From a virus (lineage: Duplodnaviria; Heunggongvirae; Uroviricota; Caudoviricetes): a stretch of 19,197 nt of DNA. This document shows, piece after piece, positions 4,222 through 19,197 of the stretch. Position 1 is the first letter of the stretch. Each line of letters begins with the position of its first letter. The notes beneath the pieces were generated by a model. That model saw only the letters and a program-made list of their open reading frames with translations, was not told the DNA's origin and did no database searches. The DNA is taken from positions 1 to 19,197 of the IMG/VR virus record IMGVR_UViG_2667527789_000020, one strand, 5' to 3'. The translations under genes and the position numbers were made by a program.

Positions 4222-4806
4222 TCAACAATGAATTTTTAGTAATTGCTCCACAGTCATATTTTTAATTGCGCTCCGGTTTACAAGAGTCCAGCCTTGTTTC
4301 TCCAGATAAAACTGGAAGGTATCCAGGGTGCAGACCATTGCACCATCAGGAACGGTTTCAGTGAATTTGATATTGCCGTGTTCGTCGAGACGGATAACCA
4401 GGGTACGTCCGTCCCCGTGAATCATTTTGTCGGGAGACGGGGCGTTATTCTGGCGCAGTTCTTTCTCCATGCGATCGAACTCAGCGATGTAGGCTTCTTT
4501 AAATGCAGCGGCTTTTTTGCCGGTGAAGCCCATCACCAGGAAAACGAAGCCGTTTTTGGTGATTTGGTACATAGGGAGTTTGCGCCCGGTTGAGTCGGTA
4601 TATTCACTGGGCGAAAAATTTCGCTCAGTGAATTCTGCTGAACAGTCTAGACGTGAAATTTTTGCCAGTACATCTTTGTGTGGTTTCCGGAAATACTCGG
4701 CAACAGCTAAAGAGGATGTAACAGCACGCCCATTGGCGATAGTAATTTCAGGGTGAGAAAGGGCAGGGATAGTAGCCATGATGGCAGCCTCCATGATGAA
4801 TTTCAT
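4222..4806 (-). CDS. Rha-family phage regulatory protein (antirepressor-like)
   Basis: Core ITIANGRAVTSSLAVAEYFRKPHKDVLAKISRL...MYQITKNGFVFLVMGFTGKKAAAFKEAYIAEF is typical of the Phage_pRha domain. The six-frame ORF extends to 5073 but the first ~90 codons are compositionally non-protein-like and contain a terminator-like hairpin. Likely start is ATG at 4806 (SD-like GGTGGTGAG upstream) or ATG at 4779 (GGAGG, 8-nt spacer). Confidence 0.7.
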   Translation of the reverse strand: MKFIMEAAIMATIPALSHPEITIANGRAVTSSLAVAEYFRKPHKDVLAKISRLDCSAEFTERNFSPSEYTDSTGRKLPMYQITKNGFVFLVMGFTGKKAAAFKEAYIAEFDRMEKELRQNNAPSPDKMIHGDGRTLVIRLDEHGNIKFTETVPDGAMVCTLDTFQFYLEKQGWTLVNRSAIKNMTVEQLLKIHC

Positions 4807-4943
4807 TAACTCACCACCGGAGGTAGCAATCTCATGGGTGGTGAGACGCACAGGGTTGCTACAACCGGTCATCATGGAACCCGGCCAGCCTTGCGGCTGC
4901 CCTGCACGCCCCACCATAATCTGAATGTGGCTGTGCATTACGC

Positions 4944-4968
4944 ATAAAAAAACCGCCTGAGCGCGGTT
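4944..4968 (-). terminator. Candidate Rho-independent terminator on the minus strand
   Basis: Minus-strand RNA would form AACCGC / GCGGTT stem (6 bp, 6-nt loop) followed by a 7-U run (plus-strand A7 at 4946-4952). Lies between the DicF-like element and the Rha start. Confidence 0.4.
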
Positions 4969-5264
4969 ATGCGCCATGATGAACATCGGGGTAGCAATCC
5001 CGGCACCCGCTTTATGAGGTGCAGGTGCACTATAATTCCACCCGTTCTGGTTTTCAATAGCTACATTCAACATTTTCTCTTACCTTTCATCACCGAAGTG
5101 AACTTTGTCGATGCAGTGCCTGGTGCCTCCAGGTGACGTTAACCAGTTAACAATTAACGCCGGAATACAGAAGTATGCCCGTTACGCCCCGTAAAAGACC
5201 ACTTTACGGTTTTAACTGTTCCGCGTGCGCTTAGCCGCATTCACCGCATCACAAAATTCACTTT

Positions 5265-12912: not shown

Positions 12913-13138
12913 GCTGGCCTGAGGCCTTCTCAAATGTTGGTATTGCAATGGCGCTGGTGGTGTATTCGATTTGCCGCTGGGGATAAAAACGGTTTGCGGG
13001 GAAAGAAGAGTTAAGTAGAATTGCTGCGGGTGCCTGAGGCTGTCTGCCTCAGGCATGAACACCAAAAGGCAGATAGAGAAAGCCCCAGTTAACATTACGC
13101 GTCCTGTAAGACGCTCAACATTAATCTGAGGCATATGG

Positions 13139-14263
13139 ATGCGGATGAAAGAATTAAATAAATTCAGAGTGATAGACCTCTTTTGTGGGGCAGGTGGATT
13201 ATCTTATGGTTTTCTTCATGGAGAGATGTCTGACTACTTTGAAAGTATCCTTGCTATTGATAATAATGCTGCAGCTATAAATACCTACAATGCCAATTTT
13301 GGTTTGCATGGAGTTCAGGCAAATATTGAGGAGTGGGCATCCAGCAATACTGTTCCTGAGGCTGATGTGGTCATAGGTGGCCCCCCGTGTCAGGGATTCA
13401 GTTTATTGAATAAGAATCGTTATGGTGATCACCGAAGAGCATTGTGGGAGCCTTATATGGATGTCATTGAGCGTTCAAGGGCTTGCATGTTCGTCATGGA
13501 AAATGTCCCCGGATTGCTGATAAGCGATGAGTTTGCGGACATTACGTTTAGAGCGAAATCCATGGGCTTTATTCTGCTTAATCCAATGGTGTTGAATACT
13601 GCTGACTATGGAGTACCTCAGACAAGAAAACGAACGATAGCAATCGGTATCAAACGAGAACTCTTCGATGAGCATAGTATTCCGGCGTTCCCGCCAGCAC
13701 CAACGCATCGTTCCCCTGATAAGGATGTCGCTTTGCCTGAATGGGTCTGTACGCGTGATGCAATTGGTGACTTACCTGCTCCTGTTGGAACTGATATTCG
13801 TAATGAACTTCCTCCGCTGAACTTACATTTTGGGCGTAATCCCACACCTGTTTCTCTGGAGCGATATAAAGCGGTTCCACCAGGAGGTAACCGTTTCGAT
13901 TTACAGAAAAAAAGACCTGATATAACCCCGGCGTGCTGGCTAAAAAAGAAATCTGGAGGGACCGATTTGTTTGGACGTCTGTGGTGGGACAGACCTTCAG
14001 TAACGATTCGTACTGAGTTTTTCAAACCGGAGAAAGGGCGATATTTACATCCGGAAGAGGATCGGCCAATAACTCATCGTGAGGCAGCGAGATTAATGTC
14101 TTTTCCTGATAATTTCATTTTTACCGGTTCAAAAACTGAGATTGCAAAGCAGATCGGGAATGCTGTTCCACCGCTATTTGCGGCAAAAATCGCACAATAT
14201 GTGTATGGAGTTTTGCAGGGACGGTATAAGAATAACATCAGTAAGAATAGTCAAGCAGCCTGA
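13139..14263 (+). CDS. DNA (cytosine-5)-methyltransferase, modification subunit of a Type II R-M system (374 aa)
   Basis: Motif I DLFCGAGG (FxGxGG), motif IV GGPPCQGFS (catalytic PC), motif VI ENV, motif X-like QIGNAVPPLFAAKIA. ATG preceded by GAGG with a 7-nt spacer. Visibly more AT-rich than the flanking phage genes. Confidence 0.9.
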   Translation: MRMKELNKFRVIDLFCGAGGLSYGFLHGEMSDYFESILAIDNNAAAINTYNANFGLHGVQANIEEWASSNTVPEADVVIGGPPCQGFSLLNKNRYGDHRRALWEPYMDVIERSRACMFVMENVPGLLISDEFADITFRAKSMGFILLNPMVLNTADYGVPQTRKRTIAIGIKRELFDEHSIPAFPPAPTHRSPDKDVALPEWVCTRDAIGDLPAPVGTDIRNELPPLNLHFGRNPTPVSLERYKAVPPGGNRFDLQKKRPDITPACWLKKKSGGTDLFGRLWWDRPSVTIRTEFFKPEKGRYLHPEEDRPITHREAARLMSFPDNFIFTGSKTEIAKQIGNAVPPLFAAKIAQYVYGVLQGRYKNNISKNSQAA

Positions 14264-15598: not shown

Positions 15599-16657
15599 AT
15601 GCGGGTATTACTTCGACCTGTTCTGGTACCGGAACTCGGGATGGTGGTCCTTAAGCCGGGTCGTGAATCAATGTCAGCATTCCATAACGGCAGAATATTG
15701 GTGGAGCCGGAACCGAAAAACATGCGCGGTCTGCCGTCCGGAGTCGTTCCCGCCGTTCGACAGCCGCTGGCAGAGGATAAAACATTACTGCCATTTTTCA
15801 GCAACGAACGGGTGATTCGTGCTGCGGGTGGCGCTGGTGCACTGTCTGACTGGTTATTACGTCACGTGAAATCCTGCCAGTGGCCACACGGCGATTATCA
15901 TCACAGCGAAACCGTTATTCACCGTTACGGTGCTGGCGCAATGGTGTTGTGCTGGCACTGTGACAACCAGCTGCGCGACCAGACATCAGAATCACTCGAT
16001 CAACTTGCTCAGCAGAATCTGGTTGCCTGGATGATTGACGTCATCCGTCATGCAATAAGCGGTACGCAGGAGAGGGAGTTATCGCTGGCCGAATTATCCT
16101 GGTGGGCGGCCTGCAATCAGGTGGTGGATGCACTACCTGAGGCAGTAGCGCGTCGTTCGCTGGGATTACCGGTGGAAAAAATCCGCTCCGTATACCGTGA
16201 GAGTGACATCGTACCGGGAGAACAGACAGCCATCAGCATACTGAAGCAGCGCACAAAAAATATTGCGCTGCCACTTCACGTCCACCAGCAACAGCCCCCA
16301 CCCCAGGAAAAGACGTTAGTAAGCATCGCCGTTGATCCGGAGTCTCCGGCTCAGTACCTCCAGCGCCAGAAACCACAACGGGAAGAGATGCCTGTATACA
16401 CGCGCTGGGTAAAAACGCAGAAATGCATGACGTGTGGCAATCAGGCAGATGATCCGCATCACATCATTGGTCATGGACTGGGAGGCATGGGAACAAAGGC
16501 TGACGATTTGTTTGTTATTCCGTTATGCCGTAAATGCCATAACGAACTACATGCCGGAGTAAAAGATTTTGAAGAGAAACACGGCAGTCAGCTGTTGTTG
16601 CTGATTCGTTTTTTAATGCACGCGAGAAATTCGGGTGTTCTGAAGTGGAAAGCATAA
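15599..16657 (+). CDS. DUF968-domain protein (YdfU-like) with C-terminal HNH-like Cys/His motif, 352 aa
   Basis: ATG preceded by GGAGG. C-terminus CMTCGNQADDPHHIIGHGLGG...LCRKCHNELH is an HNH/zinc-finger-like CxxC...HH...CxxH arrangement. Sits immediately upstream of rusA, as ydfU-like genes do in lambdoid prophages. Confidence 0.8.
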   Translation: MRVLLRPVLVPELGMVVLKPGRESMSAFHNGRILVEPEPKNMRGLPSGVVPAVRQPLAEDKTLLPFFSNERVIRAAGGAGALSDWLLRHVKSCQWPHGDYHHSETVIHRYGAGAMVLCWHCDNQLRDQTSESLDQLAQQNLVAWMIDVIRHAISGTQERELSLAELSWWAACNQVVDALPEAVARRSLGLPVEKIRSVYRESDIVPGEQTAISILKQRTKNIALPLHVHQQQPPPQEKTLVSIAVDPESPAQYLQRQKPQREEMPVYTRWVKTQKCMTCGNQADDPHHIIGHGLGGMGTKADDLFVIPLCRKCHNELHAGVKDFEEKHGSQLLLLIRFLMHARNSGVLKWKA

Positions 16658-17026
16658 ATGACCGAGCGCATAGAATTTGTTTTGCCTTACCCGCCGACGG
16701 TGAACACTTACTGGCGACGCCGTGGCAGCACATATTTTGTATCAAAATCCGGGGAGCGTTATCGCCGGGCAGTGGCACTTATTGTTCGCCAGCAGCAGTT
16801 GAAATTAAGCCTGTCCGGACGGCTGGCAATAAAAATTATTGCAGAACCACCGGATAAGCGCCGCCGTGACCTGGACAATATTCTGAAAGCACCGCTGGAT
16901 GCGCTGACGCACGCGGGGTTGTTAATGGACGATGAACAGTTTGATGAAATCAATATTGTACGTGGTCAGCCAGTATCTGGTGGACGGCTGGAAATAAGAA
17001 TTACAGAGGTGGGTGTGCATGAATAA
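16658..17026 (+). CDS. rusA: Holliday junction resolvase RusA (crossover junction endodeoxyribonuclease), 122 aa
   Basis: LPYPPTVNTYWRRRG...DKRRRDLDNILKAPLDALTHAGLLMDDEQ...GGRLEIRITEVG matches E. coli RusA (LPWPPSNNRYYR...[22 protein letters not shown]...GGRLELTITEMG), including the catalytic Asp cluster. Confidence 0.9.
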   Translation: MTERIEFVLPYPPTVNTYWRRRGSTYFVSKSGERYRRAVALIVRQQQLKLSLSGRLAIKIIAEPPDKRRRDLDNILKAPLDALTHAGLLMDDEQFDEINIVRGQPVSGGRLEIRITEVGVHE

Positions 17027-17708
17027 CCAGTATTTACAGTTTGTTCGTGAGCAACTCATGATTGCCACTGCAGATCTCAGTGGGTCGACAAAAGGCCAGC
17101 TGGAAGCCTGGCAGGAAAATGCCCTGTTCGATACAGGGCGTTACAGACGCAAAAAAATTCGTTACCGCGATGAGGTAACCGGAAAAATGATCACGCGGGA
17201 TAATCCCCCGATCCAGGGTAAACAATCACTGGCGAAAGGCTCATCAATTGCGCTGGTCAGTCCTGTTGAGTTTGCAACATCATCGTGGCGGCGTGCCCTT
17301 CTGGAACTGGAAGAACATCAGAAGGCGTGGTTGTTGTGGTGTTATGGCGGAAACATTTGCTGGGAGCATCAGATCGCGATAACGCAGTGGGTGTGGAGTG
17401 AATTTAAAACTCAGTCCGGCTCCAGAAAAATTGCAGTGAAAACGCTGGAGCGTGTGAAGAAGTTGATCTGGCTGGCGGCACAGGATGTCAGAGGATGGGT
17501 TACCGGGTGTGAGGTCTACCAGAGACAGGAGCTTGCCAGACTGTGTGGAGTTAAGCCTGATAACTGGAGCCATAATTATGCGAACTACTGGCGTGAGATG
17601 TGCGATATTTTTAAGCGTCTCGATAGAGAATCCTTGATTTGCTCCGTGAAAATAAGAGCGCAACAAAAAGCGACCTTTTCACGACGAGATATTGCAAAAG
17701 TCAATTAA
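17019..17708 (+). CDS. Putative late-gene antitermination protein Q (Qin/QuuQ-like), 229 aa
   Basis: ATG at 17019 overlaps the rusA stop (the six-frame ORF starts at GTG 17013). Position immediately after rusA and immediately upstream of a strong terminator is the canonical Q location. Family assignment is by position and size, not by recognised motifs. Confidence 0.55.
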   Translation: MNNQYLQFVREQLMIATADLSGSTKGQLEAWQENALFDTGRYRRKKIRYRDEVTGKMITRDNPPIQGKQSLAKGSSIALVSPVEFATSSWRRALLELEEHQKAWLLWCYGGNICWEHQIAITQWVWSEFKTQSGSRKIAVKTLERVKKLIWLAAQDVRGWVTGCEVYQRQELARLCGVKPDNWSHNYANYWREMCDIFKRLDRESLICSVKIRAQQKATFSRRDIAKVN

Positions 17709-17770
17709 ATCGCGTATGTTTCGTATAAATCTGATATTTTGCCGATTTTGTACACGATGGCAAAGTAAGA

Positions 17771-17797
17771 AAAAACCACCGCCAGGTGGTTTTTTTA
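17771..17797 (+). terminator. Rho-independent terminator (tR'-like) downstream of the putative Q gene
   Basis: AAAAA-ACCACC-gcca-GGTGGT-TTTTTTT: a 7-bp stem flanked by an A-run and a T7 run, 63 bp after the Q stop. Confidence 0.7.
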
Positions 17798-17919
17798 TGT
17801 CCGAAAATCTCGTCAGTACAGTAAACGCGCTGGTGGCGGTGAATACCGGTCTTTCAGCTTGCTGGCTTTTTTGACAAGAGTTATTGGTGTGTCACGTTAA
17901 CCGGAAAAGGGAAAAAGAC

Positions 17920-18117
17920 ATGCTGAAACAGCAGGATATGACCGAAACCGCCAGAGTGGTGTTTAATGAATTAAGCGTCACTGAACCGGCGACAGTCGGG
18001 GAGATTGCGCAGAATACTTATCTTTCACGTGAACGCTGCCAGTTAATACTGACCCAGCTTGTTATGGCGGGTCTGGCAGACTATCAGTTCGGTTGTTACA
18101 GACGCCTTCAGTCCTGA
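17920..18117 (+). CDS. Small putative winged-helix DNA-binding protein (65 aa)
   Basis: ATG at 17920 preceded by AAGGGAAAAAG; the six-frame ORF starts upstream at 17884. EPATVGEIAQNTYLSRERCQLILTQLVMAGL looks like a wHTH. Stop codon is embedded in a terminator. Confidence 0.45.
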   Translation: MLKQQDMTETARVVFNELSVTEPATVGEIAQNTYLSRERCQLILTQLVMAGLADYQFGCYRRLQS

Positions 18118-18127
18118 AGGCTTTTTT
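18104..18127 (+). terminator. Rho-independent terminator
   Basis: GCCTTCA-gtcc-TGAAGGC stem followed by TTTTTT. Overlaps the stop codon of the preceding small ORF. Confidence 0.65.
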
Positions 18128-18267
18128 ATTTGTGGTAAATGGGCGGCTGGTGGGTGTTAGGGGCACTCACCAGCCATCTGCTCATGCGTCCGGATCACAA
18201 GCAAACCTCAGGCCCACTGCTTTGCGCAAAAGCAGAATGAGCCTATCAGAGACAGGCTTAATGATCC

Positions 18268-19197
18268 ATGCTTAATACTGTAAAAATATCCAGTTGTGAG
18301 TTAATCAACGCCGACTGCCTGGAATTTATCCGGTCGTTACCCGAAAATTCTGTTGACCTGATAGTCACGGACCCGCCGTACTTTAAAGTGAAGCCTGAGG
18401 GCTGGGATAACCAGTGGAAGGGCGACGATGATTACCTGAAGTGGCTGGACCAGTGTCTTGCGCAGTTCTGGCGGGTGCTGAAACCTGCCGGAAGTCTTTA
18501 CCTGTTCTGTGGCCATCGCCTGGCATCTGATATCGAAATCATGATGCGTGAACGCTTCAGTGTGCTGAACCATATTATCTGGGCGAAGCCGTCCGGACGC
18601 TGGAACGGGTGCAACAAGGAAAGCCTGCGGGCGTATTTCCCCGCCACAGAGCGCATTCTGTTCGCGGAACATTATCAGGGGCCGTATCGTCCGAAAGATG
18701 CCGGGTATGAGGCGAAGGGCAGGGCACTGAAACAGCATGTGATGGCTCCGCTGATTGCTTACTTTCGTGATGCGCGTGCTGCCCTGGGGATAACGGCAAA
18801 ACAGATTGTGGATGCCACAGGAAAGAAAAACATGGTGTCGCACTGGTTCAGTGCCGGTCAGTGGCAGCTACCGAACGAAAGCGATTATCTGAAATTACAG
18901 GCGCTGTTTGCCCGGGTGGCAGAAGAGAAGCATCAGCGCGGTGAACTGGAAAAGCCCCACCACCAGCTGCTGGAGACGTATACTTCACTGAACCGGCAGT
19001 ATGCGGAACTGCAGAGTGAATATAAGCATCTGCGGCGGTATTTTGGCGTGACGGCGCAGGTGCCGTACACGGATGTGTGGACGCATAAACCGGTGCAGTA
19101 CTATCCCGGGAAACATCCGTGCGAAAAACCGGCAGAAATGCTGCAGCAGATAATCAGCGCGAGCAGTCGTCCGGGGGACCTGGTTGCAGATTTTTTC
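18268..19197 (+). CDS. DNA methyltransferase, beta class (N6-adenine or N4-cytosine), 3' end truncated by the window
   Basis: Open frame from ATG 18268 to the window end with no stop (so absent from the ORF track). DPPY motif (LIVTDPPYF) near the N-terminus and an AdoMet-binding-type motif beginning PGDLVADFF at the window edge; motif IV before motif I indicates the beta-class order. Confidence 0.85.
   Translation, partial: MLNTVKISSCELINADCLEFIRSLPENSVDLIVTDPPYFKVKPEGWDNQWKGDDDYLKWLDQCLAQFWRVLKPAGSLYLFCGHRLASDIEIMMRERFSVLNHIIWAKPSGRWNGCNKESLRAYFPATERILFAEHYQGPYRPKDAGYEAKGRALKQHVMAPLIAYFRDARAALGITAKQIVDATGKKNMVSHWFSAGQWQLPNESDYLKLQALFARVAEEKHQRGELEKPHHQLLETYTSLNRQYAELQSEYKHLRRYFGVTAQVPYTDVWTHKPVQYYPGKHPCEKPAEMLQQIISASSRPGDLVADFF

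Follow-up and report, generated by a model that had tools for sequence, protein, structure and literature searches.

The DNA considered here is a stretch of 19,197 nucleotides (nt) from a virus of the class Caudoviricetes (IMG/VR record IMGVR_UViG_2667527789_000020), to which we refer, at its full length, as the window. Its right-hand end carries a gene for a Q antiterminator of the phage 82 family, a predicted late promoter (pR′), two intrinsic terminators (tR′ and t2), a small open reading frame (ORF) and the gene of a DNA adenine methyltransferase (methylase), and between the last two a conserved structured RNA, the methylase leader (Table 1). Probably these features represent the late-gene switch, of the phage 82 type, in a lambdoid Escherichia coli prophage and the first genes of its late operon, with a methylase leader that may limit or gate translation. 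The Q, pR′ and tR′ part is textbook, and its value lies mainly in correct annotation. The new item is apparently the covarying leader RNA, which is absent from Rfam 15 and from the literature searched.

The ORFs and elements of positions 16800-19197 were read from the sequence. An earlier note, made from the letters of this DNA alone, had taken the stretch after Q for a late-gene control region, a description borne out by the family of the Q protein, the conserved promoter and the terminators. The items that it listed are all present, save that one palindrome had been placed at the wrong coordinate.

Table 1. Features of the late-control region and of the methylase leader (positions in the window; bp, base pairs; aa, amino acids).
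Feature	Position	Strand	Remarks
Q gene, phage 82 family, 229 aa	17019-17708	+	stop TAA 17706-17708; PF06323, phrog_304
pR′ −35 hexamer TTGCAA (predicted)	17692-17697	+	inside the Q coding sequence, last codons
17-bp spacer, candidate Q-binding element (QBE)	17698-17714	+	by homology with phage 82 and covariation with Q
pR′ −10 hexamer TATGTT (predicted)	17715-17720	+	TAnnnT kept in every relative
Predicted short pR′-tR′ transcript, about 70 nt	17727-17797	+	putative start at A17727
Putative sigma-70-dependent pause element, extended −10-like TGATATTTT	17732-17740	+	+6 to +14; by conservation
tR′, bidirectional intrinsic terminator and mosaic joint	17770-17797	+	A6-CCACC-GCCA-GGTGG-T7
Conserved 65-aa ORF, possible helix-turn-helix (HTH) protein	17920-18117	+	phrog_331, E = 1e-37, function unknown
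Second intrinsic terminator t2	18104-18127	+	GCCTTCA-GTCC-TGAAGGC and T6; 7-bp stem, 4-nt loop
Conserved structured 5′ leader of the methyltransferase mRNA, about 135 nt	18131-18270	+	covariance model R1
Leader helix P1	18139-18185	+	outer stem 18139-18144/18180-18185, inner stem 18145-18156/18164-18175 (12-bp hairpin of the earlier note)
Conserved linker GGAUCACAAGCAAACC	18192-18207	+	GGTCACAAGCNAACC recurs in the leader family
Helix P0	18192-18197/18262-18267	+	5′ part of the linker with the six bases before the AUG
Leader helices P2 and P2a	18211-18243	+	P2 18211-18216/18238-18243, P2a 18217-18223/18229-18235 (palindrome of the earlier note)
Alternative hairpin P3 (AGCCU/AGGCU)	18240-18258	+	shares a strand with P2; 91.8% paired
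Beta-class N6-adenine DNA methyltransferase, M.EcoGII-like	18268-19197	+	ATG at 18268; runs off the window

The Q gene, the methylase and their setting

The 229-aa protein matches PF06323 over 217 of the 220 profile positions (279 bits against a cut-off of 25; E = 3.6e-83) and is 66% identical to the Q protein of phage 82, 63% to that of phage 434 and 60% to that of Gifsy-1. As PF06323 is the Q82 family (PMC9388147), the protein is by family membership a phage-82-type Q antiterminator, as had been proposed from its sequence. Upstream of Q lie a DUF968/HNH protein and RusA, so that the gene has the nin/rusA region on one side and the late (lysis) genes on the other, the position expected for a lambdoid antiterminator of this family. 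Downstream, a near-identical E. coli prophage shows the order small ORF, methyltransferase, tRNA-Ile/Arg/Arg, SASA esterase, holin and lysozyme. These gene identities and this setting identify the window as a lambdoid prophage and the region described here as its late-control region. A segment 99.5% identical to it is present in several complete E. coli chromosomes, and some form of the segment is found in 2121 of 5426 genomes. The module of small ORF, methylase and tRNA genes also precedes stx2 in Shiga toxin (Stx) phages with unrelated Q genes.

The methyltransferase matches PF01555 (108 bits), carries an N-terminal DPPY motif (TDPPYF at residues 33-38) and has among its relatives in the PDB RsrI, CcrM and MboIIA. 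It is identical at 307 of 310 residues to the enzyme of phage 1720a-02, which in turn is very similar to M.EcoGII, a non-specific adenine methylase that is toxic if constitutively expressed and silent in lysogens (PMC5778455). From its 99% identity to the 1720a-02 enzyme, the window enzyme would likewise be expected to methylate adenine non-specifically.

A conserved RNA leader precedes the methylase gene

The region 18095-18290 has a folding z-score of −5.2, and no shuffled version of it folds as well. The earlier note had listed here a hairpin with a 12-bp stem (GGCTGGTGGGTG/CACTCACCAGCC, 18145-18175) and a near-palindrome CTGCTTTGCGCAAAAGCAG at 18227-18245, and had suggested that they act as RNA elements ahead of the methyltransferase gene, a suggestion that pairing and covariation support. 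Both exist, the hairpin with 11 Watson-Crick pairs and one G.U pair, but neither is a separate element. The hairpin is part of helix P1, and the palindrome, whose real place is 18217-18235, ten bases further left, is helix P2a of the same conserved leader, which is fixed to the M.EcoGII-like gene across Enterobacterales.

In E. coli, Salmonella, Klebsiella and Buttiauxella alike, 148-150 nt separate the small ORF from the methylase, and the column identity of this spacer is 82%. A 20-mer of the leader (ATGGGCGGCTGGTGGGTGTT, 18139-18158) recurs exactly in the genomes of 44 Enterobacterales species, including Providencia, Morganella, Erwinia and Mixta; in 42 of these a methylase homologue begins 128-135 nt after it, and in 31 the small ORF stands upstream of the leader. 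Identity within the leader is 70-84%, against 38-61% at the third codon positions of the adjacent gene.

From 118 distinct leaders, 39 representatives were aligned. RNAalifold and manual inspection gave a common fold that comprises P1 (outer 6 bp and inner 12 bp), the linker GGUCACAAGCNAACC, and P2 stacked on P2a. The MAFFT alignment has 92.5% of its cells paired (35-45% once the partners are slid), and six pairs change on both sides, a number reached by one of 500 shuffles. The covariance model built for the leader finds one copy per locus at 91-174 bits; its only match in the window scores 131.7 bits (E = 3e-35). When the alignment is fitted to the model, 96.1% of cells are paired (99% in the outer and 98% in the inner stem of P1) and eight pairs covary, which none of 500 shuffles reaches. 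P2 and P2a show two-sided changes at three to five pairs. Helix P0 is 89.7% paired with one covarying pair, and belongs to the minimum-free-energy fold in 27 of 36 leaders.

A test independent of the leader itself was provided by 80 loci fetched solely by protein similarity to a divergent member of the methylase family. Among the 79 of these that were searched, 61 have a full leader ending at the methylase start and a further six a P1-only form. The arms of P1 vary widely in this set (for example GACTGTAAAAGTG/CACCTTTACAGTC and GGCGTACATGATG/CATCTTGCACGCC), and nine of the 12 inner pairs covary. Cells changed on both sides number 157, against 48 in shuffles, and the covariation score is 0.312 against 0.144, a value that none of 500 shuffles reached. 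Of all cells, 89% are paired, whereas slid partners pair in 26-45% (range over alignments).

The frequent G.U pairs fit the + strand only. A coding role is excluded by single-base indels in the alignment. Two ORFs that overlap the leader were discarded individually: one of 12 codons at 18237 is not conserved, Klebsiella having GTG and a different stop, and one of 33 aa from 18139 is closed after seven codons in most relatives and is crossed by the same kind of single-base indels. A search with the covariance models of Rfam 15 at E ≤ 1 returned no relevant leader match in the window or in two other family members, and a literature search found no description of the leader sequence or of a methylase-associated RNA motif.

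The leader is also a site of mosaicism. At 13 of 80 loci (including L107, L132, L145, L152, L158 and L111) the shared sequence stops in the P1 loop, at window position 18157 after the left arm, and unrelated sequence follows, which makes the leader hairpin the site of a second mosaic joint; L106 retains a P1 right arm built of G.U-compatible changes. Leader copies without an intact methylase directly downstream occur in L169 (2708-2854) and L213, and shortened leaders with P1 only and the methylase ATG close behind in L381-L388.

What the leader may do

The methyltransferase gene has no Shine-Dalgarno sequence, and the region from −12 to −4 before its AUG is about 75% paired in 36 independent folds. 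Because the bases 5′ of the AUG pair with the linker and no Shine-Dalgarno sequence is present, the leader most likely keeps methylase translation low or conditional; in predicted structure, then, it probably limits or gates translation of the M.EcoGII-like enzyme. P1 may be a processing or protein-binding hairpin. Two competing pairings, of P3 with P2 and of the 3′ strand of the P1 outer stem with the linker, would allow for a switch or for a mechanism activated by processing.

Such a mechanism could replace a static brake altogether. The leader would then be a site for RNase III or another nuclease, or a switch responsive to a ligand or protein: once P1 was cut or unfolded, its 3′ strand would pair with the linker, the bases next to the AUG would be freed, and methylase translation would be turned on late. 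P1, an 18-bp helix with an internal loop, has the usual size of an RNase III substrate, and the sites at which RNase III processes Q-dependent late transcripts of lambda are the subject of a reference cited by PMC7547250. The 3′ strand of the outer stem can indeed pair with the linker motif ACRRGC (68-75% paired), with pair 58/78 being UA in 20 sequences and CG in 13, and P2 and P3 are mutually exclusive and both conserved. The alternative P1-linker helix of the E. coli type has two central mismatches, however, and P3 is seldom the minimum-free-energy fold (4 of 36 leaders); beyond the linker there is no conserved loop or junction pocket, and no known riboswitch model matches the leader. We regard this alternative as possible but doubtful. 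Equally tentative is the more general proposal that 18131-18270 represents an uncatalogued cis-regulatory RNA family, a conformational switch (P1 outer stem against linker, P2 against P3) that would gate self-toxic, non-specific methylases in the late operons of Enterobacterales prophages, with RNase III, the methylase or S-adenosylmethionine/S-adenosylhomocysteine as its trigger.

It is unlikely that hairpin and palindrome instead act as DNA, one P1 arm serving as a Chi site (GCTGGTGG, 18146-18153) and the palindrome as an operator for the small HTH-like protein, in the manner of C-protein-like methylase control. Chi does lie in the otherwise invariant left arm of P1, a second copy lies at 17829-17836, and the window holds seven copies against 0.66 expected; yet divergent members lose Chi and keep the helix by compensation, with nine of 12 pairs covarying, and Chi is on this ground rejected as the reason for the invariant arm. 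Many of the pairs are G.U (pair 12/54 in 61 of 70 sequences), which work in + strand RNA only. As for the operator, in Buttiauxella the core of the palindrome forms a perfect 16-mer (GCTTTAGCGCTAAAGC) and the small ORF is the usual upstream neighbour of the leader, but 13 of the 44 species have the leader without it, the sequence of P2a is variable but compensated (pair 99/119 goes from GC to UA), and no promoter for an operator to control was found nearby. A leader that limits or gates translation remains the reading that we prefer.

The predicted late promoter pR′ and its putative pause element

The 3′ end of Q and the DNA downstream of it were collected from 80 viral contigs, with Q proteins 66-100% identical to the query, and from phage 434 and Gifsy-1. 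Anchoring on the stop codon gave an alignment of 43 distinct regions; a table of 29 distinct promoter regions was built by searching for TTGCAAAA and then for TGnTATnTT. Since both are search patterns, the occurrence of TTGCAA and TGnTATnTT in all 29 tabulated regions is a matter of construction. In the stop-anchored alignment the two motifs are nonetheless seen in nearly all of the 43 regions, and the few without TTGCAA are Gifsy-1 and two loci with a stray stop call. The position of TTGCAA is the same as in phages 82 and 434.

In a sigma-70 consensus scan no + strand site within 17690-17770 reached 9/12, and the promoter was assigned from conservation instead. In the 29 regions the distance from TTGCAA to the −10 hexamer is always exactly 17 bp, with TACATT, TACGTT, TATATT, TAAATT and TATACT as variants of the latter in relatives; six further bases follow the hexamer, and then AAAT-n-TGATATTTTGCC, which is again kept. 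By homology, the conserved promoter would be TTGCAA-17-TATGTT, with late transcription starting near A17727, 7 nt past the −10 hexamer. Phage 434, which has an identical Q 3′ end to phage 82, shows TTGCAA-17-TATACT in this frame; its start would again fall on an A, and its element at +6 to +14 reads TGGTATGTT. At the corresponding fixed offset all tabulated Q82-type relatives other than 434 have TGATATTTT; as the table required TGnTATnTT, it is the exact bases of this putative pause element, not its presence, that count as an observation. The element was missed by the earlier note. The −10-like element of lambda, at +1 to +6, causes a pause at +16/17. Here the −10-like element lies at +9 to +14, and a pause is therefore predicted at +24/25 (near 17750-17751), in agreement with the pause at +25 of phage 82 pR′ (PMC4914094).

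In phage 82 the QBE sits between the −35 and −10 hexamers (PMC4914094). The spacer of the window is a candidate for the same element, and among relatives its sequence falls into classes that go with the sequence of the variable C-terminal third of Q. Cognate promoter, pause element and downstream terminator are thus conserved, at the level of sequence, in the architecture published for phage 82.

The earlier note had placed a PR′-like promoter and a Q-utilisation site, with a very short transcript, after Q. A site at the 3′ end of Q is retained here, but the −35 hexamer lies inside the Q frame, and TATAAAT, which had been pointed out at 17724-17730 and is present there, is not conserved and spans the predicted start site; it is no −10 hexamer. 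A promoter wholly within the gap after Q, with TATAAAT as its −10, a start at about 17736-17738 and a transcript of about 60 nt, is very improbable: although TATAAA agrees with five of six consensus positions, is the most promoter-like hexamer by eye and is present in the window and its closest relatives (Q at least 90% identical), it lacks the −7 T, its best −35 hexamer 16-18 bp upstream matches at only 2/6, more distant Q82-type relatives read TGTAAA, CGTAAA or TGCAAA (GTGTAAA and ATGCAAA over the full site, with the key A replaced by G in most) and so lose the essential −11 A while keeping TTGCAA-17-TAnnnT in every case, and a start at 17736-17738 would make TGATATTTT overlap +1, where it cannot yield the +25-type pause known for phage 82.

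The terminator tR′ and a predicted short RNA

Both intrinsic terminators that had been proposed have a hairpin and U-tract in the terminator scan and in predicted folds. The scan called tR′ on both strands; its hairpin (17778-17790) is followed by T7 and becomes an 11-bp stem when read on the − strand. Over 16900-18500 the scan gave eight terminator-like sites, against 1.8 ± 1.5 in shuffles. Similarity to Stx phages starts at 17772, and in 68 of 80 loci found via the small ORF the shared late module begins at 17770-17788. Upstream of the joint these loci have at least six unrelated leaders, each ending in a terminator with a different stem, and one of them is clearly lambda-like (TAAATT and AACGATGGG). 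Since 68 of the 80 loci share sequence only from there, tR′ serves as functional punctuation and, at the same time, as the recombination joint at which a Q/pR′ cassette meets the late module.

The 72-nt RNA from pR′ to tR′ is predicted to fold into two hairpins, one at 17735-17767 and then the terminator, at −25.7 kcal/mol (z = −5.6), and no shuffle folds as well. The expected product in the absence of Q would be an RNA of about 70 nt like lambda 6S RNA or StxS. The hairpin 17735-17767 (UAUUUUGCCG...UGGCAAAGUA) contains the pause element; it is nearly invariant where the Q proteins differ by up to 30%, is missing from the phage 82/434 type and from the L050 type, and could be a functional module of the small RNA. 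On the − strand, the conserved GGCAA and ATTTTG of this hairpin make up a promoter-like TTGCCA-16-CAAAAT (17763-17736, 9/12), from which an antisense RNA against pR′ and the Q 3′ end could be transcribed, as from lambda paQ. A CII-box half-site of phages 434 and 82 (TTGC-N6-TTGC) is degenerate in the window, where it reads TTGC-N6-TCGT. Weak Rfam matches at 17699-17799 (Phe leader, isrK, RNAI) are far under their cut-offs and driven by the terminator. The isrK match (RF01394) at 17718-17796 scores 19.4 bits against a cut-off of 50, and it is not homology, as the window has its real isrK on the − strand, at 4946-5022 (64.7 bits).

The small ORF and the second terminator

The 65-aa ORF between the terminators has 335 homologues in Enterobacteriaceae, which bear the NCBI label 'TrmB family'. 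The ORF that the earlier note had called a small winged-helix-turn-helix protein is present, but the fold label is weakly supported: the protein scores 18.1 bits against Pfam TrmB (cut-off 25.6) and has no NCBIfam match, its AlphaFold model consists of three helices with no wing strands (mean predicted confidence, pLDDT, 70.5), and Foldseek with that model gave no meaningful match (best E-value 4.3). No promoter of its own was found near the small ORF; a TTGACA at 17872 was considered as an internal promoter and rejected, being without a usable −10 hexamer and TCGACA in most relatives.

Terminator t2 overlaps the stop codon of the small ORF. Its hairpin is kept in Klebsiella through compensatory changes (GCCTCCCT/AGGGAGGC), and its U-tract is strong in the E. 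coli versions only, being weak elsewhere.

A model of the late switch

By homology with phage 82 we infer a switch that would operate as follows. RNA polymerase would start at pR′ (TTGCAA-17-TATGTT) near A17727 and pause about 25 nt downstream, as sigma-70 rebinds the −10-like TGATATTTT. Without Q, transcription would stop at tR′ and release the RNA of about 70 nt. Q, once made, would bind the promoter spacer and load onto the paused polymerase, rendering it resistant to terminators, and the modified polymerase would carry on through tR′ and t2 to transcribe the small ORF, the methyltransferase gene, the tRNA genes and the genes for lysis. A brake exerted by the leader on translation would add to the two upstream terminators, which would already block transcription without Q.

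Several points weigh against this reading. Start site, pause and termination are all predicted from sequence, and pR′ fits only eight of 12 consensus positions, which is under the threshold of the scan. Assignment of the QBE draws on a covariation that is confounded by physical linkage and by the fact that the spacer itself encodes the C-terminus of Q. Phage 434 serves as a proxy for phage 82 downstream of Q, the sole record of phage 82 ending at the Q stop. On the side of the leader, only one pair of P0 covaries, and the helix is missing in some divergent members; and fitting the covariation alignments (A4 and A6) to the model favours the structure.

Related phages carry Shiga toxin genes in the same late module, so that the Q type and promoter set the firing strength of that module. 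The leader, a candidate for a new Rfam family, fronts a methyltransferase family that includes M.EcoGII, a widely used reagent whose silence in lysogens and toxicity are known and unexplained. It offers a testable handle on how prophages hold such a methylase off until lysis.

Other elements in the window

In the early region, 4834-5022 on the − strand holds a C4 antisense RNA (4834-4921, 77.9 bits) beside isrK, both above the Rfam gathering score, a pair that resembles the P1/P7-type immI/antirepressor control module. An ORF call of 283 aa (4222-5073, −) overlaps the pair, and its 5′ end is probably over-extended. The sok antitoxin RNA of Rfam is matched at 13028-13208 (+) with 61 bits (cut-off 59), and in this early region the annotation of the near-identical E. 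coli prophage includes a hokD toxin gene.

The seven Chi sequences (GCTGGTGG) of the 19.2 kb, against 0.66 expected from shuffles, lie at 1868, 3829, 12953, 17829 and 18146 on the + strand and at 16282 and 18960 on the − strand. The copy at 17829 falls within a conserved leader just past tR′ (AAACGCGCTGGTGG, kept in most relatives), and that at 18146 within the left arm of P1.

Comparison with known systems

The closest known arrangement is that of phages 82 and 434, which share with the window a Q protein of the same Pfam family (63-66% identical), TTGCAA in the last Q codons, a 17-bp spacer, a TAnnnT −10 hexamer, an element at +6 to +14 and a terminator that follows at once. They differ in the C-terminal third of Q and in the spacer (...KPDNWSHNY... 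with AAGTCAATTAAATCGCG in the window, ...TSKNWSETF... with AACTGGATTAAAAGCCA in 82/434) and in the pause element (TGATATTTT against TGGTATGTT), and the window has about 20 extra nt, with the additional hairpin 17735-17767, before the terminator.

Lambda 6S RNA and StxS, the latter of about 74 nt and bound to Hfq (PMC7547250), likewise come from a constitutive late promoter with a close terminator that yields a short, abundant RNA, which for the window is a prediction only. The StxS-type and lambda-type leaders found before the same late module in other prophages have no sequence similarity to the short pR′-tR′ leader of the window. IsrK of Gifsy-1 (RF01394) lies directly downstream of a Q gene of the Q82 family; the match at 17718-17796, at 19 bits against 50, is driven by the terminator, and the likeness is one of position only.

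Structured mRNA leaders are known to limit or gate translation of phage genes, as in the lambda N leader with its RNase III site. The methylase leader has no sequence or Rfam relationship to leaders of this kind, but in predicted folds it resembles them in combining a long hairpin with a sequestered ribosome-loading region on a transcript made by antitermination. The paper that describes M.EcoGII mentions no upstream leader (PMC5778455). By way of the 99%-identical 1720a-02 enzyme, the methylase that the leader precedes resembles M.EcoGII and M.EcoGI from prophages of E. coli O104:H4, being of the beta class, with an N-terminal DPPY motif, and prophage-encoded.

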